Source: an uncultured Candidatus Saccharibacteria bacterium (lineage in GTDB: Bacteria; Patescibacteriota; Saccharimonadia; Saccharimonadales; JAGQNJ01). From it: a stretch of 64,000 bases of DNA. Location: the NCBI GenBank assembly GCA_964491925.1, contig CAZBGZ010000001.1, forward strand, positions 64,701-128,700. Reading direction: 5' to 3'. How positions within the stretch are numbered: the first letter of the stretch is position 1; each line of letters starts with the position of its first letter. Below are positions 3,382 through 53,848 of this stretch, one piece after another. The notes below the pieces were generated by a model. The model saw only the letters and a program-made list of their open reading frames with translations. It did no database searches and was not told the origin of the DNA. The translations under genes and the position numbers were made by a program.

Positions 3382-3462
3382 GTTTTTTGATTTTTATTCT
3401 TATGCTAATCAGCATTGTGGCCCTGGGCCTGGTCAATGTCAATAAAAATGCAAACAAAAATA

Positions 3463-4176
3463 CTAAGCTATGTCAAAATTTGTATGGGTGTTTGTTATAT
3501 CGTCCAAGCCCTCTAGGGCTTCCATTAAACGCATAACCTTACCTTGGGTCACTTCATCATTTATTTGTACCGTGTTATTTGGCACGAACGTCAGTTCGGC
3601 CTCGACCACCTCTATATCAGCATTCTGCAAATTGTCACGTACTTTTGCTAGTTCTTTTGGGTCGGTATAAACAATTGTCTCGCCCTCTTCTTCGATTGCG
3701 TCTTCAGCGCCAGCGTCCAGAACCTGTAGCAGCAGATCTTCACCGGCGCCTTTTATTCTAATTACTCCTTTGCGATCAAATTGAAAAGCCACAGCTCCTT
3801 TTTCAGCGATATTACCGCCGTGCTTGGAAAATGCTAGCCGTACCTCTGGATAAGTGCGATTAACATTATCAGTTGCACATTCAACCAATATTGCAACGCC
3901 CCCGGGACCATAACCCTCATACATAACTTCTTGTATCTGCTCCCCTCCTAGCTTGCCGCTGCCTCTATCTATCGAGCGTTGGATATTAGCATTTGGCATG
4001 TTGGCGGCTTTTGCTCTATCAATAGCTAGCCTTAGCGAAAAGTTCATTTCTGGGTCTGCACCGCCCCTTGCAGCAATAGCTATCATGTTACCGAGTTTAG
4101 TAAACACGGCCCCACGTGCTGCATCCTTTGCGCCTTTCTGTCTTTTGATTGTTGACCATTTACTATGCCCAGACAT
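3463..4176 (-). CDS. yebC: YebC/PmpR family DNA-binding transcriptional regulator
   Basis: MSGHSKWSTIKRQKGAKDAARG hallmark N-terminus. Start trimmed to the ATG at 4176. Confidence 0.9.
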   Translation of the reverse strand: MSGHSKWSTIKRQKGAKDAARGAVFTKLGNMIAIAARGGADPEMNFSLRLAIDRAKAANMPNANIQRSIDRGSGKLGGEQIQEVMYEGYGPGGVAILVECATDNVNRTYPEVRLAFSKHGGNIAEKGAVAFQFDRKGVIRIKGAGEDLLLQVLDAGAEDAIEEEGETIVYTDPKELAKVRDNLQNADIEVVEAELTFVPNNTVQINDEVTQGKVMRLMEALEGLDDITNTHTNFDIA

Positions 4177-4184
4177 TGAAAAAA

Positions 4185-5681
4185 TCACTCCTCTATATCT
4201 GTTATTATACCAGATTTTTTTGCTGTATTCGCATACATAACTAAAGCAAATACAATTATAGCCACGTAACCTACTATCATTTGATATACGTTTATTTTAA
4301 CTAAAATGTTGGCATAAGGGATCCGCGACAACAGGCTAGCAATAGATAACATATAGTCTAGGATAATTTGTGCAGGCAAAGCAAAAATTTTGGCAAAACT
4401 TAGCTGCATCATTCCGCTAATACCAGCTATTAGGCTGAAAAACATTCCCAGTGGAACGAAAGGGACCACCAGAACATTCGCTAATACACTGATGACTGAT
4501 AGCCGGCCAAACACAAACAAAATTATCGGTATTGTACACAGTTGGGCTGATATTGTTTCTATCAGAACTAATGGGACTACTTTTCCCCTAGATTTTTTAG
4601 TTAGTAGTCGTTTTTGTAGTAATGGTGCTATTATCAATATCCCGAAGAATGCCGTAAACGAAAGATACCAGCCTATATTAGACCAAAGATATAGTGGGTT
4701 TATGCCAGCGGTCAATGTAGCAACAAATGCTAGCAGGAGTATCGGGCGAAATTTTCTGCCAAAAAACCAAGCAATTAGACTCAGGCTACTGACTACCGCT
4801 GCACGAACAATCGATGGGCTGTAGCCAGTGAAAAGCAAAAATACACAAATGAGTAGCAAGGAAAAAACTAGTATTTGATAACGCGATCCCTTTCTAAAAA
4901 TTCGTCTCAGTGCATCTATTATTATTGTTAGGTTATAGCCTGAAACCGCAACTATATGAATTAGCCCGACTGCTATGAGAGTCTCTTCTAATTTTGGGTC
5001 TAGGGTTGTGCGCTGTCCTATCAATAGCCCCATTCCGAATGATGCCAGCGGTTCTGGCAAAACATTCTGCATGCCTGCAGCAAAATTTCGTCGAGTTATA
5101 TCGATAGGCGATTTTGAGCTACTAACCAATTTTAGTTTGGCAAAACTTATACCCGCCACTTGCCCACCACGTTTTTTGTATATTTTTCCGGTTACCAAAA
5201 CTTGGTCACCACGATAAACAATAGGCAAGCCCAGCCCTTTAATGCTCATTTCGCCTATCAGCTGCTCGGGAAACGGCTCTTGTAAATTTATTTTCCCTAC
5301 TGCAAAATCTAGCTGTCCATGATCAGCATATACAGCATCGTTCAACGCCATAGCTTTGATCGTAACTGTTTGCCCGACTATATCATTGTAGACTTCTAAT
5401 CTACGCATGGTTTGGCTACCACGCCACCAGCCAAGACTGAACATAGTGAAAGATAACAGAATTAACAACACAAACTTGTTGAACCTACTCAATCCATACC
5501 CGACCAATGCATTCATTGCCAAAAACCAAACCCAGCTACCATTAATAATCGGGGCAATTCTTGCGAACCCAAGTCCGAACAAAAAAATCAATAAAATAAT
5601 TGTAAAGAATGTGGTGGTTTTTATTGAAATTCTTTGTTTCATTTGCGTGCAACGCTTTTTATACAACATAACATAGGTCAT
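4185..5681 (-). CDS. comEC: ComEC/Rec2 family competence membrane protein
   Basis: Polytopic membrane protein with the ComEC core motif GLIHIVAVSGYNLTII. The start codon is uncertain (alternative ATG at 5642). Confidence 0.75.
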   Translation of the reverse strand: MTYVMLYKKRCTQMKQRISIKTTTFFTIILLIFLFGLGFARIAPIINGSWVWFLAMNALVGYGLSRFNKFVLLILLSFTMFSLGWWRGSQTMRRLEVYNDIVGQTVTIKAMALNDAVYADHGQLDFAVGKINLQEPFPEQLIGEMSIKGLGLPIVYRGDQVLVTGKIYKKRGGQVAGISFAKLKLVSSSKSPIDITRRNFAAGMQNVLPEPLASFGMGLLIGQRTTLDPKLEETLIAVGLIHIVAVSGYNLTIIIDALRRIFRKGSRYQILVFSLLLICVFLLFTGYSPSIVRAAVVSSLSLIAWFFGRKFRPILLLAFVATLTAGINPLYLWSNIGWYLSFTAFFGILIIAPLLQKRLLTKKSRGKVVPLVLIETISAQLCTIPIILFVFGRLSVISVLANVLVVPFVPLGMFFSLIAGISGMMQLSFAKIFALPAQIILDYMLSIASLLSRIPYANILVKINVYQMIVGYVAIIVFALVMYANTAKKSGIITDIEE

Positions 5682-7363: not shown

Positions 7364-7849
7364 TCATTTTCTTCCTTTTTTACCGCTACGTTCCCCACGA
7401 TTCAGTAACCACAGGGCAACCAGCTGTACCAACACCACACCGCCAATAATTGCGTTACTCGTATCCAATAGGTCCTTACCGAAGGGGACAGTCACTGCCA
7501 AGGCCTGTACATCAGGCGGCAAGACTGGCAATATAAATGCCGCGTAAACCACGCTAGTTATTACCAGAGGAAATAGATTTAGTATGCTTTTGCTTTTCGA
7601 GACACTGCCTTTCAAAAATAATGCGGTCAAAATAACCGGCAAGGTTATAACAATTGCATGAGCATACTGCGTAAGGTTAGAATTTGTGAAAGTCTGGCTG
7701 ATAAAATGCTCAACATCATCTCCAAAATATCTACCCAACAGTTCGCCTGTCATGACGCTAAAAAATAAATGTGACGCACTAACCCTAAAGAATATGCCAA
7801 AAAAAACTGGCAACCCCAGAATAATTCCTACAATAATATAAGGCAGCAT
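7364..7849 (-). CDS. hypothetical integral membrane protein
   Basis: 161 aa with 4-5 predicted TM helices and a basic C-terminal tail. Confidence 0.5.
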   Translation of the reverse strand: MLPYIIVGIILGLPVFFGIFFRVSASHLFFSVMTGELLGRYFGDDVEHFISQTFTNSNLTQYAHAIVITLPVILTALFLKGSVSKSKSILNLFPLVITSVVYAAFILPVLPPDVQALAVTVPFGKDLLDTSNAIIGGVVLVQLVALWLLNRGERSGKKGRK

Positions 7850-7874
7850 AAGCTTAATAATACCAGAGGTCGGT

Positions 7875-8435
7875 CTAAAATTGTAACTGTTTGCCTTCTT
7901 CTATTTTTGCTTTTCGCGCAACTCCAGAATTTACCTCAATTACATACTGTGCTGCCTGGCCGGGGCAGAAATTATTTGGGTATGTCTTAGGTTCTACATT
8001 TTCTTCCAAATGAAGCACTTTTTTGTCTGTCGATAGCCAAATAATATCTATTGGAAATCTCATATCTTTCATCCAGAAACAATATCTACTCGATCGATCA
8101 AAAACAAATAACATACCTTGGTCTACGGGCATAGATATACGTCCTGACAACCCTTGTCTTAGCGCTCTTGGACTACTGACCTGTTCTAGTTTCAAGCATT
8201 TATGGTCAGCTAGCTTACTGCTAAAAATATTTTTTGGTGAGTTCTCCGGCGAACTAATATCAAAAATCCTGATTTTGCAATTATCATTTCTGTGCACGAT
8301 TAACTTTGTCGATATAGCAATCGGAACAAATAGAATAATGATAGCTACCACATAAATAAAACGCCTAGTCGATGATTTGGATTTATGCGCCGACGCGGTC
8401 TTTTCGGGTTGTTCGGTTTGCGTTTTGTTCGACAT
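7875..8435 (-). CDS. DUF192 domain protein with N-terminal membrane anchor
   Basis: GLSGR...MPVDQGMLFVF...CFWMKDMRFPIDIIWL matches the DUF192 (COG1430) signature as I recall it. Confidence 0.6.
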   Translation of the reverse strand: MSNKTQTEQPEKTASAHKSKSSTRRFIYVVAIIILFVPIAISTKLIVHRNDNCKIRIFDISSPENSPKNIFSSKLADHKCLKLEQVSSPRALRQGLSGRISMPVDQGMLFVFDRSSRYCFWMKDMRFPIDIIWLSTDKKVLHLEENVEPKTYPNNFCPGQAAQYVIEVNSGVARKAKIEEGKQLQF

Positions 8436-42674: not shown

Positions 42675-45203
42675 GTGCAAAGGGGTTTTATTCTGTTACA
42701 CAAAAACGTATTTCTAGATACAAGCCAGCGAAGAAAGATAACTATTGTAGCCGTTACGGCATCGATACTAATGATGGTCACAGGGGCAATACTTTATGCA
42801 CCAAAGGCAAATGCGGCGGCAGATACCTGTACATGGACAGGTTCAGGCGGTGATTCCAATATTAATACTGCTGCAAACTGGAGTGGGTGTGATAATGGTA
42901 CCGTTCCACAAAATGGTGACGACCTGGTTTTTCCAACTGGGCCCACCAATAAAACTGTGACGATTAACACAACTCTAGAATTTAACAACGTCACGTTCAG
43001 TGGTGATGATTACTCTGTAGAAACGAGCGATCCAGGCACGAATCAACTATACGTTGACAATAACCTGACTATCAGTGGCAATGATAATACATTCAACGCA
43101 TATGTCAGATTTTTTGACTCTTCTAGCGTGACCTTGGGTCATAGCGGTAGTGGAACTGTATTTAGCCATTATATAGTTATCCAGCCGACTGCGGATAATA
43201 CAGATATGGTTTTTGATATAGATAGCGATATGTCTGTCCCAATGATTGCCCAGACAGCAGTTGGAGTAGGAAGTTCAATAGACACAGTCACAAAGACGGG
43301 CGTTGGCACTCTGGATATTACTGGGGCTGGGATAACTGGTGTTACTACCAACAATGGGGTTCATATCGAAGAAGGTAGGTGGGAATGTGATTCAACTCAT
43401 TGCTTAGGCAATACTGCTAACGAAATTATTCTAGATGAAGGTGGGGGCCCAGATGGTGCAGAACTCGCGATTAATCATAGCGGAACGGTCAGTAACCCGA
43501 TAACTTCTTCTGCTACTACTGGAGAAGATGGGTCTGTTATCATTTCTGCAAACGCGACGCTGAACGGTGATATTACCGTTAACAATGACTTAAATATGTT
43601 TGTGACTGGTACTACTACCGCTAATATTGATTCGGATATAGCAATTGCAGATGGTAAAAATCTTGTAAGTTACGGGGTGGAAGGCTATACCACAAACGCT
43701 TACGATTACGATGGGGTGATCTCTGGTGATGGTGGCATGATAGTTGATGATGCTCATGTGACATTAACCGGCACTAATACTTATACTGGCGATACCGAAA
43801 TAACAGATACGGGCAGTGGCGGCCTTGTATCTGTTACTAATGAATCGGGGCTGGGAACAAATGCAGGCAAGACCATAGTAAATTCAGGGACAACGCTTAA
43901 CTTCAGTTCTGGTTCAGACCAATTTTACGACGAGCCATTGCAAATATCAGGGAGTGGAGTTGGTGGATCATACCCTGCCGCGATTGTTAACGACAACTCT
44001 TATCGTGCTCTAAATGGCAATATAATGTTAGCTGGCGATGCAACCGTACAAAATAATATCAACGAACTTGTAGTATTTGGCGGGCAGATCTCTGGTGATT
44101 TTGATCTTTCGTTGGTTGGGGGGGTTGAAAATGGAAGTTTTACAATGGGGCCATCTACGGATAATACCTACGGGGACACCATTGCTACCGGCACACAACT
44201 TCTTATTTACGGGGGTTCAGGGATAATAGCTATTCCTGGTAACCTTACGATGAACGCCGTAGATTCGCATACTAGCAGGATATGGATGCAGTACGATAAT
44301 ACTATTGCGAACAATTCTTTAATTACACTAAATAATAGTGATAGCCAAGTTGCGTATTTGTTAAATATGGGTGTCGCAGATACGGTTGGTACGATTGAGG
44401 GTGATGGGACTATTTCGATGACCGATTCAGATAGCCATCTATTGATTGGTGCCGGGGATACTGACGGCACTTTTGAGGGAGTTGTTGAGGGGTATACTAA
44501 TTCGCAGTTTGAAATTATTGACAGTGGAACATGGACTTTTTCTGGAGACAACACAGATGTCGGCAATGGCTTTAGTAGTTACTACGTTAATGGTGGTAAA
44601 TTTATTGCTAATGCAATCAATACGAGCTTGGGCTTCTCGCCATTTAGTATAAGTGGTGGTATTTTGGGTGGCACTGATGTGATCGGTCCTGTCAGTGTTT
44701 ATTCTGGTACGATTGCTCCTGGCAATAGCCCTGGCTGCTTAAACCCTGCAGGAGATGTGGCTTTTTCCGATGAACTTTCTACACTAACTGTCGAGCTCAA
44801 CGGCAACACTATTTGCAGCGAGTACGACAAACTTGCGGCAAGCGGAGTTGTTTATCTCAATGATGCAACGCTGAATGTAGACCTAGGTTTTGATCCATCC
44901 GACGGGGATGTGTTCACAATCGTTGAAGGCTCATCAATCGTCGGTACTTTTTCAGGCCTAGCCGACGGCGATACGTTTACAGCTGGTGATGGAGAATTTC
45001 GTATTAATTACAATGCAGAAAATGTAACCCTCACCTACATTGGGCCAGCCGCAGGCAGTGATTCTAGTGACTCTGATTCGAGCCTGGCAGATACTGGGAT
45101 GAATACTCAGGCACTTATAGTTATTGTACTGTTTCTAATATCTTCTGGTGGATTAGTTGGTATAAATCTACGCAAAGATTTTTTCCATTCGACACGACAA
45201 TAA
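42675..45203 (+). CDS. large beta-helical surface protein with autotransporter-associated beta-strand repeats and a C-terminal LAxTG sorting signal
   Basis: Signal peptide, repeated G-x-G-x-L-x-L-x-G-x-NTYTG-type segments (TLTGTNTYTGDTEITD). The C-terminus is SLADTG plus a hydrophobic helix plus RKD, the architecture of a sortase substrate. Confidence 0.75.
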   Translation: MQRGFILLHKNVFLDTSQRRKITIVAVTASILMMVTGAILYAPKANAAADTCTWTGSGGDSNINTAANWSGCDNGTVPQNGDDLVFPTGPTNKTVTINTTLEFNNVTFSGDDYSVETSDPGTNQLYVDNNLTISGNDNTFNAYVRFFDSSSVTLGHSGSGTVFSHYIVIQPTADNTDMVFDIDSDMSVPMIAQTAVGVGSSIDTVTKTGVGTLDITGAGITGVTTNNGVHIEEGRWECDSTHCLGNTANEIILDEGGGPDGAELAINHSGTVSNPITSSATTGEDGSVIISANATLNGDITVNNDLNMFVTGTTTANIDSDIAIADGKNLVSYGVEGYTTNAYDYDGVISGDGGMIVDDAHVTLTGTNTYTGDTEITDTGSGGLVSVTNESGLGTNAGKTIVNSGTTLNFSSGSDQFYDEPLQISGSGVGGSYPAAIVNDNSYRALNGNIMLAGDATVQNNINELVVFGGQISGDFDLSLVGGVENGSFTMGPSTDNTYGDTIATGTQLLIYGGSGIIAIPGNLTMNAVDSHTSRIWMQYDNTIANNSLITLNNSDSQVAYLLNMGVADTVGTIEGDGTISMTDSDSHLLIGAGDTDGTFEGVVEGYTNSQFEIIDSGTWTFSGDNTDVGNGFSSYYVNGGKFIANAINTSLGFSPFSISGGILGGTDVIGPVSVYSGTIAPGNSPGCLNPAGDVAFSDELSTLTVELNGNTICSEYDKLAASGVVYLNDATLNVDLGFDPSDGDVFTIVEGSSIVGTFSGLADGDTFTAGDGEFRINYNAENVTLTYIGPAAGSDSSDSDSSLADTGMNTQALIVIVLFLISSGGLVGINLRKDFFHSTRQ

Positions 45204-45217
45204 TCAAAAAAATAATC

Positions 45218-45380
45218 TGGTGGCGATAAAGCGAAGAGTTTTGAACCTTTGGATGTTATCGTTGAATGACTGATTTCTAATCCCAATCCTGATTGGAACT
45301 TACAACTGTAAAGGCTGAGAAAGTAGCTACTGAACAGATGTGGCGATACTAGAAAAGAGTAAGATAAAGTGTGTTGAAAC
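45218..45380 (+). repeat. array repeat copy C1 (degenerate: in-frame TGA and a frameshift)
   Basis: Starts TGGTGGCGATAAAGCGAAGAGTTTTGAACCTTTGG, ends GTGGCGATACTAG, plus the tail AAAAGAGTAAGATAAAGTGTGTTGAAAC. Confidence 0.95.
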
Positions 45381-45400
45381 TACTACTGTATGATGTGTGT

Positions 45401-46303
45401 ATGACAATTGAAGACCAACTTACTGAGAAATATGGCTTGCGTTATCCAAAATGCAAGAACCTGCATACTCTAGCTAATGATTCATTTGAAGTATTATGTC
45501 CTGACGGACACTTTGCTCTCAAAGTCTACAATGCAACCGCAAGAAAGCCTCAAGAAATACAGTGGGAAATAGATCTAACCCTTCACCTAACAGAGAATGG
45601 CGCGCCAGTCGCTCCAATTGTTGCTGCTAAGGACGGTAGTCACCTGAAGACGTTCAGTGTTGATGGGCAGGATCGTGTAGTAATTTTGTTCGAGTGGGCT
45701 GCAGGCGAGAAACCTAAACCAGAGCTCAGTACTTATACTCTAATTGGTGAGGCAGCTGCTCGTATACATGATGCGGCTGACTCCTTCGCGTCAGATTTGC
45801 CCCGTGAAGAATTTGACGCTTACGAACTGTTTGACGACCAACTGAAACGAATGAAAATACCACTTGAAGAAAGTGGTCAGTGGCAACGCGTCTTTGACCT
45901 AACCGAACGAATGAGGAAGATTGTTGCTAATCCTAGTCTCGACTATGGGATTATTCATAACGACCTAACGCTAGATAACATACACCTCGATAGCGGTAAG
46001 CTGGTTGTTTTTGATTTCGATAGTGCAGCAAAGTCTTGGCGAGCAGCCGAGCCGTGGGGAGTACTCAAGGCTTCTGAAGATAGGTTCAAGGCTTGGCTTG
46101 AAGGATACCGCTCAGTTCGTGAGTTTAGTAAAGAAGACGAACAAGCCGTCGCTGCTTTTGTGATCATCGAAGATATTAGGAACGTCACATGGAAACTGGG
46201 CTGTGCTCGCTCTTCACGTGGCAAGCCCCTCATAAAAACAAAGGATATACCTGCTGTTGTTGACGAGTGGCTAGAGTGGGAAGCACAAAAGGTCAGGAAC
46301 TAG
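45401..46303 (+). CDS. aminoglycoside/choline kinase-like phosphotransferase (APH family fold)
   Basis: IIHNDLTLDNIHL (HxDxxxxN catalytic loop) and VVFDFDSA (DFD metal site). Start trimmed to MTIEDQL. Confidence 0.7.
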   Translation: MTIEDQLTEKYGLRYPKCKNLHTLANDSFEVLCPDGHFALKVYNATARKPQEIQWEIDLTLHLTENGAPVAPIVAAKDGSHLKTFSVDGQDRVVILFEWAAGEKPKPELSTYTLIGEAAARIHDAADSFASDLPREEFDAYELFDDQLKRMKIPLEESGQWQRVFDLTERMRKIVANPSLDYGIIHNDLTLDNIHLDSGKLVVFDFDSAAKSWRAAEPWGVLKASEDRFKAWLEGYRSVREFSKEDEQAVAAFVIIEDIRNVTWKLGCARSSRGKPLIKTKDIPAVVDEWLEWEAQKVRN

Positions 46304-46781
46304 TTTTTCCAAATAGCTGCACCATAATTTCTTCTCGATCATCTTCAATCGCCAAGTAGATTCCTTCGTTTTGTAGACGCGTTTGCATAGACTCCTCAAT
46401 CTCTAGTGAGTCATTAAATACATCTAAAATCGTATGTTCAGGGTCATCTCGAAGAACTCTGTTTATCGACAGTTTGTTACAGCTGCAACAAAGATGAATG
46501 AACATGATTTCACCTTGTTTAGAAATGCCTTCGTGCTTGAAAGTAAGTCCAATTGGCTTCATGCCACCTAAACAAGTAGCTGTGCGATCACCTGGCTTCC
46601 CATCAATATGTTTAGACCAAAAACACATATTGCAGTGGTTCCGGTTCTTTGAACCCATAAGTTCGTTTATGACTACCCATTGCTTACAATGAGTGCACTT
46701 GAATCCACCTGCTTTGTTTTCTCTAAGTCGTTCTTGTTTTCTAAACTTTTCATAGTCAAATAGCTCACGTTTATAGTTCAC
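46293..46781 (-). CDS. zinc-ribbon protein with RNHCP-like motif
   Basis: CTHC...NRNHCNMC...CLGG...CCSC cysteine pattern. The RNHC motif recalls the RNHCP domain family. GTG start. Confidence 0.5.
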   Translation of the reverse strand: MNYKRELFDYEKFRKQERLRENKAGGFKCTHCKQWVVINELMGSKNRNHCNMCFWSKHIDGKPGDRTATCLGGMKPIGLTFKHEGISKQGEIMFIHLCCSCNKLSINRVLRDDPEHTILDVFNDSLEIEESMQTRLQNEGIYLAIEDDREEIMVQLFGKTSS

Positions 46782-46801
46782 GCAGAAAAATCCTATCCCA
46801 C

Positions 46802-46828
46802 AAAAAAAACCAGCTAGCTTAGCTGGTT
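46802..46828 (-). terminator. terminator-like hairpin inside the 5' leader of the RNHCP-like gene (possible attenuator)
   Basis: On the minus strand, AACCAGCTA-agc-TAGCTGGTT followed by T8, ending about 20 nt before the GTG start. Confidence 0.55.
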
Positions 46829-46986
46829 ACTGGATAGTCGGAAACTATTTTACTTTGTGATTACATTTACAGATTTTTGGCACCAGCCAAGCAGAACCCC
46901 ATCTGGGGCGTGACTTCTGCATATGTGGTGCTACTTCTGAAATGTAACATAAGCAATATAATACTAACTTTAGTACGGATTGTCAA

Positions 46987-47122
46987 TGGTGGCGGTAAAG
47001 CGAAGACTTTTGAACCTTTGGCTGAAGTTGTAGAGTGGCTGTTTGAGAACAAGGAAATGAGTTGCGCTAGTTGGTTAGCAGAGGCTTCATTGATCGATTC
47101 GATACAAGGGTGGCAATACTAG
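46987..47122 (+). repeat. array repeat copy C2 (frame intact, divergent 3' half)
   Basis: TGGTGGCGGTAAAGCGAAGACTTTTGAACCTTTGG... The frame reads GGGKAKTFEPLAEVVEWLFENK...GWQY*. Confidence 0.95.
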
Positions 47123-47641
47123 AGGTCCGTTCCCAAAGTTTAAGGGTGCAAGCATATAGGGCGACGGAACTTCTTTTTTTCGCTCAACTAGATCCACTTC
47201 TTCTACGTGCGCAATCGAATCCGTACCTACAGATCCCAAAACAAGCGCTTCATAAGGAAGAAGCGGCACAGTTACCACTTGATCGGCGCGTACTTTCAGC
47301 GTAGCTAATCTACCCCCTTCTCTCTGAGCATATCTTAAGGCTATGTCTCGTTCAGGTGTAGCAGAGACAAAGGGAGTGTACTCGCCCGATATAGTTGGAT
47401 CACTCGAGGCAGCATGGGTTGCTATAAGATTGATTAACATGTAATCCCTATCGCTGGCGACCTCTTTTATGACTTCATATAAGTTTTTTGGACGGTCGTG
47501 TAGAAGAGCTGCTGAAAGCATACCTCTCTCTGGGTCAACTTGATGTGGGGCAAAACCTCGATATAGCGTAACGACTTCGTCAGGAGACTGACCAAGTCTT
47601 ATTTCTGGAGATAAATTATGCCAATCAAAGTGATAAGACAT
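47087..47641 (-). CDS. hypothetical protein with ADP-ribosyltransferase-like R-S-E motif spacing
   Basis: 184 aa with TLYRG ... PFVSAT ... PYEALVLG in the order and approximate spacing of R-S-E ART toxins. Weak, motif-only. Its 3' end overlaps the tail of C2. Confidence 0.5.
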   Translation of the reverse strand: MSYHFDWHNLSPEIRLGQSPDEVVTLYRGFAPHQVDPERGMLSAALLHDRPKNLYEVIKEVASDRDYMLINLIATHAASSDPTISGEYTPFVSATPERDIALRYAQREGGRLATLKVRADQVVTVPLLPYEALVLGSVGTDSIAHVEEVDLVERKKEVPSPYMLAPLNFGNGPLVLPPLYRIDQ

Positions 47642-47678
47642 ATTTATATATTACCATAAGCTTAATAATAAGTCAATG

Positions 47679-47841
47679 TGGTGGCGATAAAGCGAAGACT
47701 TTTGAACCTTTAGAGTCTGTTGTGGAGTGGCTGATTGCGAACCCTAATCCTGCCTGGTCTTTCCAACTCAAAGAAACTGCGAAAGTTAAAATCGAACAGA
47801 GTTGGCGGTACTAGAAAAGAGTAAGATAAAGTGTGTTGAAC
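47679..47841 (+). repeat. array repeat copy C3 (frame intact)
   Basis: The frame reads GGDKAKTFEPLESVVEWLIANPNPAWSFQLKETAKVKIEQSWRY*, with the tail AAAAGAGTAAGATAAAGTGTGTTGAAC abutting the next gene's stop. Confidence 0.95.
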
Positions 47842-48387
47842 CTAGAGGACTGCGATAGCGGCTAAAAGGATACTTACATGTGACAAGAATATAAACGGTA
47901 ATTCGAAGTATAAGAAATGATCCCAATACTTGGCAGCAAACAAGCAGAGTATGCTCATAAGCCCAAAAATAAACCACTCGAGCAAGGCATATGTACCCGT
48001 CAGGGTTGTTGCAAATACGAAAGCTAGTGCCAACATCCCCATTCCCATTCCGTATGCTAGATAGTCATGTACTTTTCCAAGCCTACCTTTTCTGGCTGGG
48101 ATCATAGCAAGCAAGAGTTCGCAGCCGATGACTACCGTGTAAAACATTATCAGTAATGGTCCTGTACCGAGCCGAGGAATCACCAAAAAATACATCATCA
48201 CCGAAATCAGACTCCCGCATGTCCAAAGGATGATTCTAAACTCCCTTAGAGTCTTGCTATCTTTAGCCGCTAACTCACTGAGTGTACGGCGTTTTTCGAG
48301 CCTGTGTTCTCTGACTGCAAAAACTGTAACGCTAACTGAAGATAGGATGATTCCGAGCAAACCACAAATAAAAGCAAAGGCTGGCAT
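47842..48387 (-). CDS. hypothetical integral membrane protein
   Basis: 181 aa with 5-6 TM helices. Confidence 0.55.
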   Translation of the reverse strand: MPAFAFICGLLGIILSSVSVTVFAVREHRLEKRRTLSELAAKDSKTLREFRIILWTCGSLISVMMYFLVIPRLGTGPLLIMFYTVVIGCELLLAMIPARKGRLGKVHDYLAYGMGMGMLALAFVFATTLTGTYALLEWFIFGLMSILCLFAAKYWDHFLYFELPFIFLSHVSILLAAIAVL

Positions 48388-48422
48388 AATGATGATTATA
48401 GACTAAAAAGTTCTAACGTATT

Positions 48423-48586
48423 TGGTGGCGATAAAGCGAAGACTTTTGAACCTTTGAGTTCTGTCGTGGAATGGTTGATTGAAAACCCCTTACCTGACGG
48501 GGACTTGCAGATAAGACAGGCTGAAAAAGTCCAAGTTGAACAAGGATGGAGATACTAGAAAAAGAGTAAGGTAAAGAGCGTTGAAC
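48423..48586 (+). repeat. array repeat copy C4 (frame intact)
   Basis: The frame reads GGDKAKTFEPLSSVVEWLIENPLPDGDLQIRQAEKVQVEQGWRY*, plus the tail. Confidence 0.95.
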
Positions 48587-49075
48587 CTATTCCGCAAGGC
48601 TATGTACAGTAACCTTGTCGAATAGCTTCAGTTCGGCTTGAGTTAGTTTCTGAAAGACCTTGGCATATTCTCGGATTTGGTCTTCGCTAATAATCCCTAC
48701 TCCATGACCACCTTTTTTGTTACGTTTCTCTAGTCGTCTTATTAACTCCTCCAAGGGAATATCGAAGTAGTTTAGCTCAGTTATTGCTCCGACCTCTTTG
48801 GCTTTTCGACGAATAGTATCGCGCTCTTCCTTTGTCCATAACCCATCTTCAAATAGCAATGATTGACCCTCGGCTAGTGTTTGCCAAGCAGTCTCCCACA
48901 AGGCACGCCAGCTTTTCTCATGTAAGGCTTCATTTTGCAGGTCGAGCCCGCGATCAGCCATCCAGTCATCAGTACAAAACCGCAGTACACCTCGCTCTTT
49001 GGCAAGCTGTTTACCTAATGTTGTTTTGCCTGATCCTGGTAGTCCACAGAATAGTATTAAAGTTAGCTTATTCAT
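48587..49075 (-). CDS. P-loop kinase (AAA_33-like ATP-binding protein)
   Basis: Walker A GLPGSGKTT, 162 aa. Its start overlaps the stop of the upstream ABC-F gene (ATGA). Confidence 0.65.
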   Translation of the reverse strand: MNKLTLILFCGLPGSGKTTLGKQLAKERGVLRFCTDDWMADRGLDLQNEALHEKSWRALWETAWQTLAEGQSLLFEDGLWTKEERDTIRRKAKEVGAITELNYFDIPLEELIRRLEKRNKKGGHGVGIISEDQIREYAKVFQKLTQAELKLFDKVTVHSLAE

Positions 49076-50541
49076 GACTGCTCTAATTCTATAACTTTTG
49101 TAATACGCAGTGTATCAACAAAGTAGTTGTCGTGTGAGGCAACCAGTAATGCTCCTTCGTACTCCTGCAGCGCCACTTCTATTTGTTCACGGGTAGCAAT
49201 ATCGAGATGGTTTGTAGGTTCATCGAGAATTAAGAGTTGGTGAGCACCAAGTAGTAGTTTGGCAAAACCGAGTTTCGCCTGTTGGCCACGAGATAGTTCG
49301 CTCACCTTTTTCTTTAAGTCTTGTTTTGTCAGCCCTAAACTTCGTGTTTCCCTAAAAAGAGCAGTCGGATCAGATAGATAGTCCTGTAGATTCTCCAATG
49401 CAGTACGATTATGGTCTAAGCCGTCGACATCCTGCGAGAAATAGCCAATGCTGACGTCTGTCCCAATAGTAACCTGGCCTTTGGTGGGCTGTTCTATTCC
49501 TGCAGCAATCTTCAATAATGTGGTTTTTCCACTCCCGTTGTTACCAGCAATACGCAACCGTTCATTGCCACGGAGCTCAAAGCTAATACCATCTAACACT
49601 AATGCGGAGAAACTTTTATGGATGTCACTTAAACGAAGGAGAAGCTTTTGGCTAGACACCTCACCTGGCAAGACTACTTTGTAGCTCCGAAGCGTTTCGG
49701 GACGTTCAATATCTTCCAGTTGCTCCAGACGCTTCTCCAAAGCACGAGCTTGCTGACCAAACTTGTTTGTCACTCGATTCCTGAAGAAGTCCCGCTGATA
49801 TTTATCACCGTCCGCACGCTTAATGTGTTTATGCGTGTGTTGTCCTTGCTCACGTTGCTGATCAATAGCTTTGTTCAGCCTTTGACGCTCCTCGATATTC
49901 TTCTCATACCGTTCTAGCTCGCTACGGCGCTCTATGTCCCTCCGTTCAAGGTAGAAGTCGTAGTTACCGCCATACTGTCTCAGTTTACCGTCTTTAAGCT
50001 CGACCACTTTCGTAGCAACCTGGTTGATGAAAGCTCGATCATGACTAACCAGCAGCACCGCACCGCGATACGACTTAATGAAGTTTCTCAGCCAGTGTAG
50101 TCCGCTTGCATCCAGATTATTAGTTGGCTCATCTAAAAGCAGGGTAGTTGGTTCAGGTTTGCTAGACAATACAATAGCAAGTGCTAAACGTGTTCGTTGC
50201 CCGCCACTGAGGGACTTTGTCGACGTGTCTAGAACTACGTTTAAACCGACCCGAGAAAGGGCGTAGTTAACCTGCCACTCTTCAGCAGCCGAGCTAAAAC
50301 TTTCGTGGACTGTTCTACCCAAAGTCGCTTCCTGTGGCACATAGCCAATAACTTCCCCGTTGAGATCTAAGTGGCCACTATCTGGCTTGGTTGCGCCTAA
50401 CAGTACTTGAAGCAAGGTTGTTTTTCCAGCTCCGTTACCACCAATAAGAGCAACTACCTCACCAGTGTTTACTGACAGGCTAATGTCGTCCAAAACAGTC
50501 TTGCCTAAGAAAGACTTGTGTATATGACGAAATGTGAACAT
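49072..50541 (-). CDS. ABC-F ATPase, likely antibiotic-resistance (ARE) type ribosomal protection protein
   Basis: Two ABC cassettes (GGNGAGKTT/LSGGQRTR/LLLDEPTN and GNNGSGKTT/LSRGQQAK/LILDEPTN) with no TM domain. They are joined by a charged linker. Length is about 489 aa, and a leader peptide plus terminator lie upstream. Confidence 0.75.
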   Translation of the reverse strand: MFTFRHIHKSFLGKTVLDDISLSVNTGEVVALIGGNGAGKTTLLQVLLGATKPDSGHLDLNGEVIGYVPQEATLGRTVHESFSSAAEEWQVNYALSRVGLNVVLDTSTKSLSGGQRTRLALAIVLSSKPEPTTLLLDEPTNNLDASGLHWLRNFIKSYRGAVLLVSHDRAFINQVATKVVELKDGKLRQYGGNYDFYLERRDIERRSELERYEKNIEERQRLNKAIDQQREQGQHTHKHIKRADGDKYQRDFFRNRVTNKFGQQARALEKRLEQLEDIERPETLRSYKVVLPGEVSSQKLLLRLSDIHKSFSALVLDGISFELRGNERLRIAGNNGSGKTTLLKIAAGIEQPTKGQVTIGTDVSIGYFSQDVDGLDHNRTALENLQDYLSDPTALFRETRSLGLTKQDLKKKVSELSRGQQAKLGFAKLLLGAHQLLILDEPTNHLDIATREQIEVALQEYEGALLVASHDNYFVDTLRITKVIELEQS

Positions 50542-50554
50542 ATTTTCTCCTAAC

Positions 50555-50601
50555 AAAAAACCGAGCATGGCGGGTGGCGAAAGCGTCGCACTTATGCTCG
50601 G
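50555..50601 (-). terminator. leader terminator (attenuator) upstream of the ABC-F gene
   Basis: On the minus strand, CCGAGCAT-(25 nt)-ATGCTCGG followed by T6, ending 13 nt before the ABC-F start codon. Confidence 0.7.
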
Positions 50602-50665
50602 TTAATATCTAAGTTAAGAAATGAAATAATCAATAGCAAAGCTACAGCTCTCGGTGCGACACTTA

Positions 50666-50689
50666 TTAGCGATTGATTATATCTATCAT
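50666..50689 (-). promoter_or_regulatory. 7-codon leader peptide ORF (MIDIINR*) with Shine-Dalgarno AAGGAG
   Basis: ATGATAGATATAATCAATCGCTAA on the minus strand, with AAGGAG (50700-50705) about 10 nt upstream. It sits between the promoter and the terminator. Confidence 0.6.
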
Positions 50690-50717
50690 GTTCTATAAAC
50701 TCCTTTAAGTTTTCTGC

Positions 50718-50746
50718 ATATTACCATAACCGTATAGTTTCGTCAA
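50718..50746 (-). promoter_or_regulatory. sigma70-type promoter abutting repeat C5
   Basis: On the minus strand, TTGACG (50746-50741), a 17 nt spacer, then TAATAT (50723-50718). The -35 box starts immediately after the repeat core CCACCA. Confidence 0.65.
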
Positions 50747-50909
50747 TGGTGGCGATAAAGCGAAGAGTTTTGAACCTTTGTTTAATGTCGTAGAGTGGTT
50801 GATAACCAACCCTGATCCTGCCTGGTCAAAGCAACTCAAAGAAGCAAGCTCAGTGCAATTTGAACAGTGTTGGCGGTGCTAGAAAAGAGTAAGATAAAGG
50901 GCGTTGAAC
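50747..50909 (+). repeat. array repeat copy C5 (frame intact)
   Basis: The frame reads GGDKAKSFEPLFNVVEWLITNPDPAWSKQLKEASSVQFEQCWRC*, plus the tail. Confidence 0.95.
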
Positions 50910-51104
50910 CTATTTGATTGTAGCATTTGGTGTAGGTTGAACTTCTTGTAAACTAGACTGGTCTGGGAATAGAGGTAGTTGACGACCTTCTTCAAGACCT
51001 AGAAGCATTCTACGGGTTCTATTAAAAAGTTCATTGAGACCTTCTTGTGTTGCACCCTCCTCAAAGTGTGTTCCTGCTTCTGCTGAGTCGATAAATATGG
51101 GCAT
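50910..51104 (-). CDS. hypothetical small protein
   Basis: 64 aa, with AGGAG 6 nt upstream of the ATG. No motif recognised. Confidence 0.45.
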   Translation of the reverse strand: MPIFIDSAEAGTHFEEGATQEGLNELFNRTRRMLLGLEEGRQLPLFPDQSSLQEVQPTPNATIK

Positions 51105-51153
51105 TGTAAACTCCTTTTATACTAGGATTTTAACATATCCTCAAGACATTGTC

Positions 51154-51289
51154 TGGTGGCGATAAAGCGAAGAGTTTTGAACCTTTGGCGGGTGTTGTTG
51201 AATGGTTAATTTCTAACCCTATACTTGGCTGAAACTTGCAACTGAAAGAAGTTAAAGATGTTCAAATAAAACAGACTTGGCGCTACTAG
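51154..51289 (+). repeat. array repeat copy C6 (one in-frame TGA)
   Basis: The frame reads GGDKAKSFEPLAGVVEWLISNPILG*NLQLKEVKDVQIKQTWRY*. Confidence 0.95.
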
Positions 51290-51302
51290 ATAGGCCTAAA
51301 CC

Positions 51303-51878
51303 TTAATTGAACTCTGATGGAATATTGAACTGCTTGGTCATTTCTGGACTTGTCATTTGCCCACGGTAGAGGACTAGCCAAGTTTCATTAGCTTTCTTTA
51401 GATAGTATGCCGAGCCGCTGCCATCGGTTGTTCCGTCTTTGCTACATACTGCATTCACGTAGGCAAAGTTTTTATCAGATGAGTATAGAACTTGCTTCTG
51501 ACTTGCACCTGCTGTTCCGACTTTGAGAACTAAAGCCTGTTTAGTATCTGGATCAACAGTAGCATTACAGTACGACTTCACGGCGGCTAGTATTTGCTCG
51601 TCATTTGTCGGGGTTTTTGGGGCAGCAGCTGGCGTTTCTGAAACAGGCTGGGTAGTAGATTGTTGGAGCTTTGTGATTTCTGCCTTGCTAGCATCGAGTT
51701 GGCTTTGAAGGTCTTGGTTTTTACTATTTTGCCAATAGTATAGGCCTCCGAATGCAGCAAGTATCAAAAGAGCTATCCCGAAAGCTAGAATTATCTTCTT
51801 GCCCTTACGATTTGTCTGTGGCGGTTGACTTAAGTTGGTGTTTTGATCAGGTTGAGTTATGTTTTGTTGATTATCCAT
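51303..51878 (-). CDS. hypothetical membrane-anchored extracytoplasmic protein
   Basis: 191 aa with a Q/N-rich N-terminus, one TM helix, a short coiled coil and a C-terminal globular part. Confidence 0.55.
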   Translation of the reverse strand: MDNQQNITQPDQNTNLSQPPQTNRKGKKIILAFGIALLILAAFGGLYYWQNSKNQDLQSQLDASKAEITKLQQSTTQPVSETPAAAPKTPTNDEQILAAVKSYCNATVDPDTKQALVLKVGTAGASQKQVLYSSDKNFAYVNAVCSKDGTTDGSGSAYYLKKANETWLVLYRGQMTSPEMTKQFNIPSEFN

Positions 51879-51924
51879 ATTAGTTATACATTAGCATTTT
51901 ATGGATAAGACGAATAGTACTTTA

Positions 51925-52083
51925 TGTGGCGATAAAGCGAAGACTTTTGAACCTTTAGCTTGTGCCGTTGATTGGCTGATTGCTAACTCCCGCCCTAATT
52001 GTCTTCTATGGCTTGGGTATCAGACAACAACATCAAAAATAGCTGTCAATAATATTATGGCACCTAAGAACGAGGGTTCTTAA
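51925..52083 (+). repeat. array repeat copy C7 (core lacks one triplet; 3' half diverged)
   Basis: TGTGGCGATAAAGCGAAGACTTTTGAACCTTTAGC... The frame reads CGDKAKTFEPLACAVDWLIANS, then unrelated sequence up to a TAA. Confidence 0.9.
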
Positions 52084-52090
52084 TCCGGAC

Positions 52091-52483
52091 TTAGAAAGTG
52101 AAGCATTTTAAAAAGTGCATAGCGAATATAACCAGAAAAATCGATATCTCTACACCAATAACATAAAGAGATGAATAGACTATATTAACCCAAAAACTTT
52201 TTTTCTTAGAGTGATTTGTAAAAAAGAATCCCCCAACCAATATTGTAGAGATACCAATTATCATAGCTTGGTCTAATTTGTAGTAGTAGCTGTAGTCGTA
52301 GGTAACATAAGACCCATTCCTTAAAAACTCTAGTGGCCCCACGCTACATTTTTCAAAATAAATGAGCGTTAAAGGTATGAGTATACCAAAGGCTAATGAC
52401 AATTTTCTTATTAAGCCCATTCGACTCATTATACATAAGCCAATTGTTTTATAAATATATCCTACTATCAAAAAATCCTTCAT
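52091..52483 (-). CDS. hypothetical integral membrane protein
   Basis: ORF trimmed to MKDFLIVGYIYK because the N-terminal extension in the track reads through a tRNA 3'-end fragment. 3-4 TM helices. Confidence 0.5.
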   Translation of the reverse strand: MKDFLIVGYIYKTIGLCIMSRMGLIRKLSLAFGILIPLTLIYFEKCSVGPLEFLRNGSYVTYDYSYYYKLDQAMIIGISTILVGGFFFTNHSKKKSFWVNIVYSSLYVIGVEISIFLVIFAMHFLKCFTF

Positions 52484-52512
52484 AGCTCTAAACAAAGTAG
52501 AGCGACGAAGGA

Positions 52513-52533
52513 TGGTGGGGATGGTAGGATTTG
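52513..52533 (-). repeat. exact 21 nt copy of the tRNA(CAU) 3' end (T-loop to CCA)
   Basis: TGGTGGGGATGGTAGGATTTG is identical to 53773-53793. Confidence 0.95.
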
Positions 52534-52691
52534 CTTTATCTTCCATTAGCGACAAAATGACTAAAGTCATTGCGCATATGGGCAAGTACTTAAAACTCAA
52601 ACAGCCGTACTTGGCTGTTTTCACCTTTCGGTTCAAATCCACAATAACTCACTTCATAATAAAAACACCCAAAAAAGGAGTGATTTTATTA
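52534..52691 (-). repeat. second copy of the ~155 nt tRNA-flank element (inverted relative to 27286-27440)
   Basis: A 31 nt perfect match, 52547-52577 being the reverse complement of 27395-27425 (ATGCGCAATGACTTTAGTCATTTTGTCGCTA). The order of terminator hairpin, inverted T-arm piece and AGCC...GGCT hairpin is collinear with the first copy. Confidence 0.85.
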
Positions 52692-52827
52692 TGGTGGGGA
52701 TTAAGTGAAGACTTTTGAACCTTTCGTTTCTGTCGTTGATTGGCTGATTGCCAACCCCAATCCTGAATGGGGCTTACAGTTAGAAAATGCTTTGAAGGTC
52801 TATATTGACCAGAGTTGGCGGTACTAG
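52692..52827 (+). repeat. array repeat copy C8 (hybrid: exact tRNA acceptor core TGGTGGGGAT; in-frame TAA at codon 4)
   Basis: TGGTGGGGATTAAGTGAAGACTTTTGAACCTTTCG... The frame reads GGD*VKTFEPFVSVVDWLIANPNPEWGLQLENALKVYIDQSWRY*. Confidence 0.95.
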
Positions 52828-53432
52828 CTATTGGATTCTAGGCGATCAAGCTCTTTTTCGATAAGATTAACTGCATGCTCCCAGTCATCGGCACGCCATT
52901 CAATTGAATAGTTATGGCCTGTTTTGTTGTAGGGCTGGGGAATAAGAACCGCGGCCAACCCGTGCTTTGCAGCACTCTCGCAGTACTTTACTGCATCGTC
53001 TACCAGTACTTTTCCTCCAAGTTCCTTTGCAATTTCGCCTTTTTCTCTGTGCATGTCACTAGATGGTTGAGTCGTAAAGTAGACTTCCGATATTAAATCA
53101 CCGAACTGTTCTTCGATGACCCTCTTTGTAGACTCATGAAACATATCATAATTGCGAGATGTTAGAGCTACTATACGTGCTCTCTTTGATAAGCGTTCAA
53201 GTGCTTTCTTTACACCGCTAACCTGACGATATTGTTCTGTTGCGTGTTGGAACTTATGAAACTGGTCTTCTCCGTTGACGATAAACTTTGACTTATCATG
53301 TTCAGCATTAAAATTGAAGATGTCGGAGGCATCATAATTAGCTCCGTGTGTTTGGTTGTAGGCTTTTACTGCATCGACGGGTGTTTCAAATAGAACTCCG
53401 TCAATATCAACCACGACAACTGATTTCTTCAT
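52824..53432 (-). CDS. HAD-superfamily 5'(3')-deoxyribonucleotidase-like hydrolase
   Basis: VVVVDIDGVL (DxDxV/T motif I), ALTSR (motif II) and a VLVDD region. Start trimmed to MKKSVVVV. Confidence 0.65.
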   Translation of the reverse strand: MKKSVVVVDIDGVLFETPVDAVKAYNQTHGANYDASDIFNFNAEHDKSKFIVNGEDQFHKFQHATEQYRQVSGVKKALERLSKRARIVALTSRNYDMFHESTKRVIEEQFGDLISEVYFTTQPSSDMHREKGEIAKELGGKVLVDDAVKYCESAAKHGLAAVLIPQPYNKTGHNYSIEWRADDWEHAVNLIEKELDRLESNS

Positions 53433-53471
53433 AGACTCATCATACCAAAAATGCATCAACAGAGGTATTTA

Positions 53472-53492
53472 TGGTGGGGATGGTAGGATTTG
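53472..53492 (-). repeat. exact 21 nt copy of the tRNA(CAU) 3' end
   Basis: TGGTGGGGATGGTAGGATTTG is identical to 53773-53793 and diverges inside the T-loop. Confidence 0.95.
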
Positions 53493-53772
53493 GTCACATT
53501 CTGCTACCCCGAAACTTCGTGGTATGCAACAAGTTGCATCCAGAAGATTTCCTTGCGGACAGCCACTGGCTATTCTCCCAAAAGTTTCGCATTGCGAACT
53601 TTTCGGCATGCCTCGCCTCGGGCAATAATTTGCGCCGAGGCCCCGGCCTTGCAAAATGCCATTCTAGGCATTTCTCACCTCCGACTTGTTGGGCCCTTCG
53701 ACCTTGCTCAGGGTCATTCGACTAGAAATAGAATCGCCCATGGTTTACCATGAGCGAACGAAGTGAGTCGAA
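53493..53772 (-). other. 280 nt G+C-rich, hairpin-dense non-coding insert between the tRNA and its 3'-end copy
   Basis: Several strong hairpins (TGCAAC-aa-GTTGCA, CCTCGG-N-CCGAGG, AATGCC-attcta-GGCATT, AAAAGTTTCGC-att-GCGAACTTTT). Only short overlapping ORFs with no coding signature. Confidence 0.6.
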
Positions 53773-53848
53773 TGGTGGGGATGGTAGGATTTGAACCTAC
53801 GACCAATCAGTTATGAGCCGACTGCTCTAACCCCTGAGCTACATCCCC
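53773..53848 (-). tRNA. tRNA with CAU anticodon (elongator Met or Ile2-lysidine), CCA encoded; anchor of the cassette array
   Basis: On the minus strand: GGGGATG-TA-GCTC-AGGGGTTA-GAGC-A-GTCGG-CTCATAA-CTGAT-TGGTC-GTAGG-TTCAAAT-CCTAC-CATCCCC-A-CCA. Confidence 0.88.

Follow-up and report, generated by a model that had tools for sequence, protein, structure and literature searches.

A tRNA-Met-anchored gene array in Candidatus Saccharibacteria, best read as a fossil record of a serine integrase with attP inside its own gene

Integrases that have their att site inside their own gene and target a tRNA, so that the gene is partitioned on insertion and fragments are left at tRNA loci, are the "suicidal" tyrosine enzymes of the SSV1 type, which are known only in Archaea (2021 review, PMC8371274). 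Large serine integrases (A118/LI, Bxb1, phiC31) have Resolvase and Recombinase domains, short sites with a 5-bp motif shift between partners (PMC3783163), and leave no long target duplication. Here we analyse a 64-kb window (64,000 nucleotides (nt) of contig CAZBGZ010000001.1) from an uncultured Candidatus Saccharibacteria bacterium, in which eight direct repeats of 135-165 nt separate unrelated accessory genes beside a tRNA-Met(CAU), and which has something in common with both systems and with four others. In SCCmec and pseudo-SCC composites, Ccr serine recombinases insert at the 3' end of rlmH (orfX), with serial insertion at one gene end, recombinase-less members and a repeated site punctuating resistance cargo. 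Mycobacteriophages with integration-dependent immunity, reportedly described by Broussard et al. in 2013, have attP in the 3' end of an element gene (the repressor), with different C-termini in the free and integrated states. Integrons and attC clusters without integrase (CALIN) form arrays of small cassettes with repeats of 100-plus nt that contain cargo stop codons, while cis-mobilisable elements (CIMEs; ICESt1/ICESt3) and tRNA islands (Islander), devoid of recombination genes, accrete in tandem at one site with att-derived repeats. The genomes of Saccharibacteria are tiny, few mobile elements have been described from them, and our literature search returned nothing on such a system in this group. 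The array is best read as a fossil record of a Saccharimonadales serine integrase (large serine recombinase, LSR) with attP inside its own gene, built as LSR elements integrated in series at a single tRNA and their LSR genes were later lost, a reading to which we give a probability of roughly 0.78.

A repeat search, a mismatch-tolerant pattern and an nhmmer profile recovered the same eight copies, all direct and on the plus strand (C1 to C8, Table 1; the start of C7 falls at 51924/5). The 29-nt core pattern, with up to three mismatches allowed, has eight matches in the window, all within the array region and none elsewhere, against a chance expectation of 0 (100 shuffles). Exact-pattern scans of other data gave three loci in species-representative genomes, all from Saccharibacteria, eight in metagenomes, two of which (L008 and L012) are chance matches, and 0 matches in viral contigs. 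Cores are nearly identical within the window while the tails that follow them average 58% identity and are as diverged from one another as from the tails of other genomes, which argues against duplication in place. Pfam scans of the window's 50 open reading frames (ORFs) found no recombinase domain. Neither strand of the repeat forms a conserved hairpin (consensus fold of about -2 kcal/mol and 0-3 covarying pairs over 22 copies), and in an Rfam scan the tRNA was the only match, leaving the repeat unmatched; an attC-like or RNA structure was rejected on these grounds, as was a dif/Xer-like site, dyad symmetry being absent on inspection.

Alignment of 24 distinct copies from the window and its relatives resolves the repeat into two parts under different constraint. 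Similarity begins abruptly at TGGTGG, an edge that is sharp in 22 of the 24 copies and bears no LSR remnant; the following 27 nt are nearly invariant, and the subsequent ~100 nt vary with codon periodicity. The 33-nt head is conserved as DNA, whereas the remainder is an open reading frame lacking a start codon: the frame GGT GGC GAT AAA... encodes GGDKAKTFEPL..VVEWLI.NP.P.W..QLKEA..V..EQ.WRY* (asterisk, stop). The ratio of non-synonymous to synonymous differences (pN/pS) is 0.47 in this frame versus 0.93 and 1.53 in the other two, and synonymous divergence is 0.10 in codons 1-11 versus 0.57 in codons 12-44. The 44-codon frame is open in 19 of the 24 copies, nearly all of which terminate in WRY*, C1 being the most decayed. 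Roughly half or more of the copies have no start codon, and where one is present it lies in non-homologous flanking DNA at a variable distance. Searches of 5.8 billion proteins (word-indexed) and of 1.84 billion representatives (HMMER) returned no large protein ending with the tail peptide, only ORFs of 46-98 amino acids (aa) in which the match is always C-terminal. The repeat thus appears, by its pattern of variation, to be a coding tail and not a self-standing gene, behind a head that is constrained as DNA. Two other origins of the frame were tried and rejected. The 842-aa ORF at 42675-45203 stops 15 nt short of C1, shares its frame and could have been a repeated target gene, but L011 has two other genes between the orthologue and its first repeat, and no large protein ends with the peptide; a programmed frameshift from an out-of-frame ATG (C2, C5, C8) fails because that ATG is missing or differently framed in other copies.

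A preliminary description of this DNA, made from the sequence alone, had reported the eight direct repeats, an extra tail on four of them running up to the next gene's stop, the minus-strand tRNA with copies of its 3' end, a tRNA-like variant in C8, the lack of a recombinase in the window and of integron attC architecture, and an array anchored at the tRNA whose repeat derives from a recombination site resembling the tRNA 3' end; each of these was confirmed or supported here. It had, in contrast, treated the repeat as a site only and so missed the plus-strand coding, and it had given every repeat the ending TGGCGRTACTAG, which exists as W-R-Y-stop but has changed in C2, C4, C5 and C6 and is missing from C7. 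Its view of the core as a one-base variant of the tRNA acceptor end gives way to an attP/attB relation that includes a 5-nt shift, and its view of a recombinase-less architecture without described parallel to a repeat that fits an LSR P' half-site with the displaced last 44 codons, given that an LSR is found at the equivalent locus in relatives.

Exact-pattern scans and protein look-ups retrieved Saccharibacteria loci with the repeat beside this tRNA-Met (L001-L007, L009-L011, L031 and L032). In L007 an LSR lies two genes from a window-type repeat, near the tRNA, and on one strand of L006 a window-type repeat is followed by cargo and then by an LSR N-terminus. The enzymes carry Resolvase and Recombinase domains (PF00239, PF07508) and have 402 homologues at E<=1e-10, mostly of ~523 aa, of which all that bear a source name come from Saccharimonadales/Saccharibacteria. 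The LSRs of L014-L024 occupy the equivalent locus and are more distant than those of L006 and L007. In L014, L015, L017, L019, L020 and L022 the LSR ORF overlaps tRNA-Met antisense by ~22 nt, and in L024 by ~55-58 nt, so that the LSR C-termini are translated antisense tRNA 3' ends (...FQxGGGGWI*, GGGGRI*, GGGGWNRTNYQVVM..., GGGREIRTPAPG...); the window's own tRNA 3' end reads GGDGRI* in the LSR frame, the exact C-terminus of the database LSR P0072. Among the 120 homologues listed, nearly all of the 113 longer than 400 aa have tRNA-encoded ends, and nearly all are intact genes in the integrated state.

The same seven elements have, at their opposite end, 3-8 kb upstream and on the strand of the LSR, a TGGTGG from which a 46-codon tail runs in the LSR frame. 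This type-2 tail (for example GGDWLSLFETRPLEDILADIAEGW...EVSYVL*) has the layout of the window repeat and belongs to a different tail family; each LSR element that was examined has a TGGTGG with its tail at the distal end. Two remnants join the parts. In L013 an LSR pseudogene (P0024) reads on across the core, without a change of frame, into a tail from the broader family to which those of the window belong, while its intact relatives P0135 and P0145 end in the tRNA-encoded tails ...MSSGADERT* and ...MSSGALKRT*; in L024 the last ~80 codons of an older LSR (P0152) lead into a type-2 tail, after which come, in this order, cargo, an intact LSR and the tRNA. Since one end of the element has the LSR reading into the tRNA and the other an in-frame tail, and LSR and tail are continuous in L013 and L024, attP would lie within the 3' coding region of the LSR gene, and integration would therefore separate the last 44-46 codons from the rest. 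The order in L024 further suggests that a second element can integrate at the junction left by a first, whose LSR then decays. In L005, a second and only distantly related LSR (2474-4072; E = 6e-17 against the family profile) shares 44 nt, antisense, with another tRNA-Met (c4029-4103, anticodon at position 33); it may be common for Saccharimonadales LSRs to extend into a tRNA 3' end, a possibility with which their varied tRNA-derived C-termini agree.

The relation between repeat and tRNA fits partner sites rather than copies. Identity between core and tRNA is confined to TGGTGG, a few inner bases in register and a shifted motif: counted from TGGTGG, the first base of the 9-mer TTTGAACCT is position 23 in the core and position 18 in the antisense tRNA, so that the repeats contain a 5-nt insertion and differ from plain tRNA copies. 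Four genomes (the window, L001, L002 and L003) show the +5 shift, and in the type-2 elements L015 and L019 it is +5 or +6. For the LI integrase, the zinc-ribbon motif was shown to span positions 16-24 of the attP half-site and, in attB, to lie 5 bp closer to the centre (Rutherford et al., PMC3783163); if this numbering applies, the crossover would fall within or next to TGGTGG, which agrees with the tRNA-derived residues directly after the GG codons in integrated LSRs and with the abrupt loss of homology to the left of TGGTGG in the array. The conserved head, at 33 nt, is of the short size (40-50 bp) expected of serine integrase sites, which leave no long direct repeat around the element, and as far as can be judged from sequence the geometry fits attP and attB of such an enzyme. 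C1, C3, C4 and C5 carry an extra tail reaching the CTA (= TAG) stop of the adjoining minus-strand gene, formed by a second motif, AAGATAAAG(A/T)G(C/T)GTTGAACCTA (45355-45382, 47817-47844, 48561-48588 and 50885-50912), which is present in most copies from relatives; it lies ~10 nt past the tail stop in most copies, follows the pattern GAT-N8-TTGAACCTA, and its final CTA is the stop codon of the neighbouring cargo gene. Its spacing is that of the tRNA (attB-type), unlike the +5 spacing of the core, and type-2 elements have an analogous second TTTGAAAC motif.

Serial integration would explain these features as follows. An element whose attP sits inside the 3' end of its LSR gene would insert at the 3' end of tRNA-Met(CAU); crossover at or next to TGGTGG (antisense of CCACCA) would fuse the first ~517 LSR codons to a few tRNA-encoded codons, such as GGDGRI*, and the native last 44 codons, with their stop and 3' motif, would move to the far end of the element. 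Each repeat would be the tRNA-distal junction (attL type, x-P') left by such an event, its 33-nt head a P' half-site that mimics the tRNA half-site with the outer TTTGAACC motif moved 5 nt outward, and its codon-like remainder the orphaned LSR tail; we regard this identity of the repeat, as P' half-site plus displaced tail, as likely. The eight units would represent eight separate integrations at the tRNA-proximal junction, after which the LSR genes would have been lost and the promoter-bearing accessory genes retained. The cargo of each element would lie tRNA-ward of its repeat, with C8, nearest the tRNA, the youngest and C1 the oldest. To the specific route by which LSR-less cassettes arose we would give even odds.

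Several observations weigh against this reading. A six-frame scan of the window found no remnant of the relatives' LSR family, and because the window has neither gene nor remnant, the proposed link of its array to LSRs leans on the relatives. There, continuity from LSR to tail is known only from the two decayed remnants, and profile searches with both tail types found no full-length LSR with a native tail in protein databases or in IMG/VR, only small ORFs; the LSRs in IMG/VR are only 25-38% identical. The sequence to the left of TGGTGG is unconserved, which would leave one half-site per partner undefined, an unusual arrangement among LSRs. Use of attR or attL as targets is not expected of serine integrases, yet tandem arrays need the reuse of these junctions, although L007 and L024 hint that it occurs. 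All eight LSR genes are gone exactly to TGGTGG, with -35 boxes abutting the cores, which is tidier than random deletion predicts. The attB-spaced second motif is not accounted for, nor are the 22-nt copies of the tRNA 3' end (Table 1), which a crossover at TGGTGG does not explain and which may record another kind of event. Finally, L031 carries three repeats on the tRNA's own strand, which implies inversion.

Because the removal of the LSR genes is so clean, an explanation that keeps the same site identity and differs only in how the array was built stays alive, although we consider it unlikely: the LSR-less units would be mobile cassettes, circles of core, tail, cargo and promoter, moved in trans by an LSR encoded elsewhere, a serine-recombinase analogue of the integron. 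The sharp TGGTGG edge without LSR remnant, the tight packing with promoters abutting cores at a near-fixed position, cores that are nearly invariant even where tails have decayed (C1, C6), tail divergence within the array equal to that between genomes, and a homologous cassette with other neighbours in L011 and the window all speak for such movement. However, no circular form and no identical cassette in two contexts was found, shared cassettes being only 50-62% identical, and L013 and L024 show another route, decay of the LSR in place; the circle would also be without its P arm, normally within the LSR coding sequence, and LSR directionality rules oppose the reuse of hybrid sites.

The other explanations give the repeat a different identity. 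Tandem tRNA islands made by a tyrosine integrase, with repeats as displaced tRNA 3' fragments, are the classical model, and both the tRNA-like core and the two exact 22-nt tRNA copies flanking segments of 280 and 937 nt would suit it; yet the eight repeats are not tRNA fragments but have a 5-nt insertion followed by a conserved 33-codon frame, no tyrosine recombinase occurs in the window or the related loci examined, and serine recombinases occupy the site in relatives, which makes this model very unlikely. Highly improbable as well is a free-standing gene for a small protein of ~45-50 aa, such as an antitoxin or regulator, travelling with each cassette: the in-frame purifying selection, the 46-98-aa ORFs annotated by gene callers and the in-frame upstream start in some copies are set against the starts that are missing in roughly half of the copies and otherwise lie at variable distances in non-homologous flanks, first 11 codons constrained as DNA, a frame continuous with LSR remnants, and the same design found distally in all LSR elements examined. 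An integron-type attC, the array being a CALIN, is suggested by units of single genes parted by repeats of 135-165 nt, cargo stop codons inside the repeat and a GTTGAAC that matches the GTTRRRY consensus; we count it as refuted, since the hairpin is missing on both strands, the two motifs are direct and not inverted, the cassettes have promoter-like sites of their own, IntI is absent from the window and the repeat is protein-coding. The chance is similarly negligible that the repeat acts as RNA, a tRNA-like 3' element processed from or stabilising the cargo mRNAs: the cargo-strand units do all end in ...GGTTCAAAAGTCTTCGCTTTATCGCCACCA, which resembles T-loop, acceptor strand and CCA, but that strand has neither conserved structure nor covariation nor an Rfam match, the T-stem cannot pair, and the variation is codon-periodic on the opposite strand.

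Serial LSR integration would give the locus a position of its own among the described systems. Compared with known large serine integrases, attP would lie inside the recombinase 3' coding region, with the last 44 aa swapped for a few tRNA-encoded residues, the target would be the CCA/acceptor end of a tRNA, only one half-site per partner is visibly conserved, and hybrid junctions would seem to be reused to give arrays. As in the SSV1 type, the relatives show a site within the recombinase ORF and its parts at opposite ends of the element; those enzymes are, however, archaeal tyrosine integrases whose split form is thought inactive, whereas here a serine enzyme (PF00239, PF07508) of Saccharimonadales would exchange only its C-terminal 44 aa, and nearly all of the listed LSR genes over 400 aa are intact when integrated. 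In contrast to mycobacteriophage immunity, the affected gene would be the recombinase itself. The locus also departs from SCC composites (a tRNA target, a 135-165-nt repeat with a recombinase tail, units of 0.4-2.3 kb with one or two genes, and a host from the candidate phyla radiation (CPR)), from CIMEs and tRNA islands, which involve tyrosine integrases and repeats that are simple copies of the target 3' end, and from integrons and CALIN, from which the failed attC structure test excludes it: it has no attC hairpin and no IntI, its cassettes have promoters, and its repeat would be a gene fragment with a serine half-site.

The notable part suggested by these comparisons is a bacterial serine integrase with attP inside its own gene, a possible exception to the Archaea-only rule in a version that exchanges only the C-terminal tail; this exchange could simply separate the integration and excision states. 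The fullest form of the proposal, that Saccharimonadales LSRs are jointly the first bacterial and first serine-type self-splitting integrases, that the 44-aa tail across attP is a switch between free and integrated states, and that LSR-less units are true cassettes shuffled in trans at x-P' and x-B' sites, a serine counterpart of the integron for promoter-bearing genes in CPR, is doubtful as a whole. In a reduced genome, the locus is a hotspot of accessory genes (resistance-like, metal-resistance, nucleotidase and, in relatives, CBASS-like), and the enzyme family that probably feeds it can now be named. The "TGGTGG + 44-codon tail" signature provides a precise marker of element ends in metagenome-assembled genomes, and natural LSR/att pairs whose attP mimics a tRNA can be drawn from the family.

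Comparison of the loci points to a variable hotspot. Those from Saccharibacteria carry one to five repeats beside the same tRNA-Met, with cargo that is almost wholly different among them and hardly any shared, while the junctions stay at TGGTGG, as the preliminary description had proposed to check. L011, the nearest relative, has a guaA/842-aa flank of 82% identity and shares a single cassette with the window, that of the 184-aa gene, set among different neighbours (its homologue at 7445-8014 has 62% aa identity). L017 (3845-11566) contains one complete LSR element at tRNA-Met with a LexA/S24 repressor and an operon resembling a cyclic-oligonucleotide-based antiphage signalling system (CBASS; OAS1_C-like nucleotidyltransferase, bacterial HORMA, AAA ATPase, CARF-like effector); L014-L016 carry LexA/S24 and DUF1508, and L032 a CsoR/DUF305/P-type ATPase cassette. 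The segment formed by the tRNA and its island is reversed between genomes relative to the Dus/FMN_red and DivIC flanks (L031, 7849-10837, and L014, L019, L020 and L022 versus the window), and a short-tail site in L031 (TGGTGGGGATGACTTGG..GGAACCAACT, GGDDLVAMEPTT*) that adjoins FMN_red resembles the 3' end of the L007 LSR, a pattern that suggests inversions between att-type sites.

Table 1. Features of the array region, with window coordinates; "P' core" and "LSR tail" denote the proposed identities of the two parts of the repeat.
Feature	Position	Strand	Remarks
C1	45218..45382	+	P' core; decayed LSR tail (TGA, TAA, 1-nt frameshift); second motif
APH-family phosphotransferase	45371..46303	+	Pfam; sole plus-strand cargo gene
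RNHCP-domain protein	46293..46781	-	Pfam; promoter-like site 46986-46958 abuts C2; terminator-like leader hairpin 46828-46808
C2	46987..47123	+	P' core, GGCGGT variant; diverged tail ending WQY*; without second motif
184-aa protein	47087..47641	-	no Pfam match; promoter-like site 47676-47648 abuts C3
C3	47679..47844	+	P' core; intact 44-codon tail 47680-47814 including stop; second motif, its end the CTA stop of gene 47842-48387
181-aa protein	47842..48387	-	no Pfam match
C4	48423..48588	+	P' core; intact tail; second motif
Cargo operon	48587..50568	-	ABC-F ATPase 49072-50568 and AAA_33 kinase 48587-49075; promoter-like site 50746-50718 abuts C5
C5	50747..50912	+	P' core; intact tail ending WRC*; second motif
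64-aa ORF	50910..51104	-	promoter-like site 51155-51127 overlaps C6 start
C6	51154..51319	+	P' core; tail with TGG>TGA; degenerate second motif
191-aa protein	51303..51878	-	L002 homologue (4256-4951) 50% identical over 130 aa
C7	51924..52083	+	core without first bases (ATGTGGCGAT); tail divergent after ~codon 25
ORF called as 183 aa	52091..52642	-	spans 22-nt tRNA copy; promoter-like sites 52471-52428
22-nt tRNA 3'-end copy (last 21 nt + one base)	52512..52533	+	exact
C8	52692..52857	+	nearest tRNA; core variant TGGTGGGGATTAAGTG, tRNA-like G at position 7; tail open from GTG 52705, ending WRY*
NT5C/HAD 5'-nucleotidase	52824..53459	-	Pfam
22-nt tRNA 3'-end copy (last 21 nt + one base)	53471..53492	+	exact
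tRNA-Met(CAT)	53773..53848	-	3' end antisense (TGGTGGGGATGGTAGGATTTGAACC), proposed B' half of attB

The DNA next to the tRNA has further features of its own. ATGGTGGGGATGGTAGGATTTG occurs in three exact copies, at 52512, 53471 and, in the tRNA itself, 53772, which bound segments of 280 and 937 nt. The former (53493-53772), between the tRNA and the first 22-nt copy, is GC-rich, folds at -111.6 kcal/mol (z = -4.96 versus shuffles) and is 97% identical to L009, which also carries an 86-nt insertion and whose backbone, as represented by L011, reaches only ~82% identity with the window. The segment matched no Rfam family and no viral sequence, and could be a small RNA or a miniature element. The 158 nt from the other 22-nt copy to C8 (52534-52691) contain a T-loop-like GGTTCAAATCC on the plus strand after a CAGCC...GGCTG stem, and could represent a degenerate, oppositely oriented tRNA fragment, for which ARAGORN made no call. 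In three relatives a group I intron interrupts the anticodon loop of tRNA-Met(CAU) (L004 4662-4852, L007 3615-3828 and L009 1568-1739, all on the minus strand; Rfam RF00028, 54-62 bits), and ARAGORN misses these genes because of it; the window's copy is intron-free.

Pfam supported the cargo identities given in the preliminary description for the APH, RNHCP, AAA_33 kinase, ABC-F and NT5C proteins, with the correction that APH and RNHCP are two convergent genes and not one protein, whereas the 184-aa product it had called ART-like has no Pfam match. A PADLOC scan of the cargo gave generic ATPase matches only. Since the ORF called as 183 aa spans a tRNA fragment, its real start is probably an ATG near 52430. 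The cassettes' own promoters, likewise proposed earlier, have candidates in promoter-like sites on the minus strand (46958-46986, 47648-47676, 50718-50746 and 51127-51155), whose -35 hexamers (TTGACA, TTGACT, TTGACG and CAGACA) lie 0-2 nt from, or overlap, the CCACCA end of the core at C2, C3, C5 and C6; as the reverse complement of the conserved LSR "FQ" codons (TTCCAA) is TTGGAA, the -35 box may be a co-opted P-arm remnant. Attenuation-type control is known for ABC-F resistance genes. Leaders of 180-205 nt precede the RNHCP gene (46782-46986), where there is a weak Trp_leader match (E = 0.5), and the ABC-F operon (50569-50746), and such control is possible for both. At the far side of the array, the bounding 842-aa ORF has no Pfam match, and its nucleotide similarity to the L011 orthologue stops at 43789, which implies that the last third of the protein, adjoining the array, has either diverged or been exchanged.

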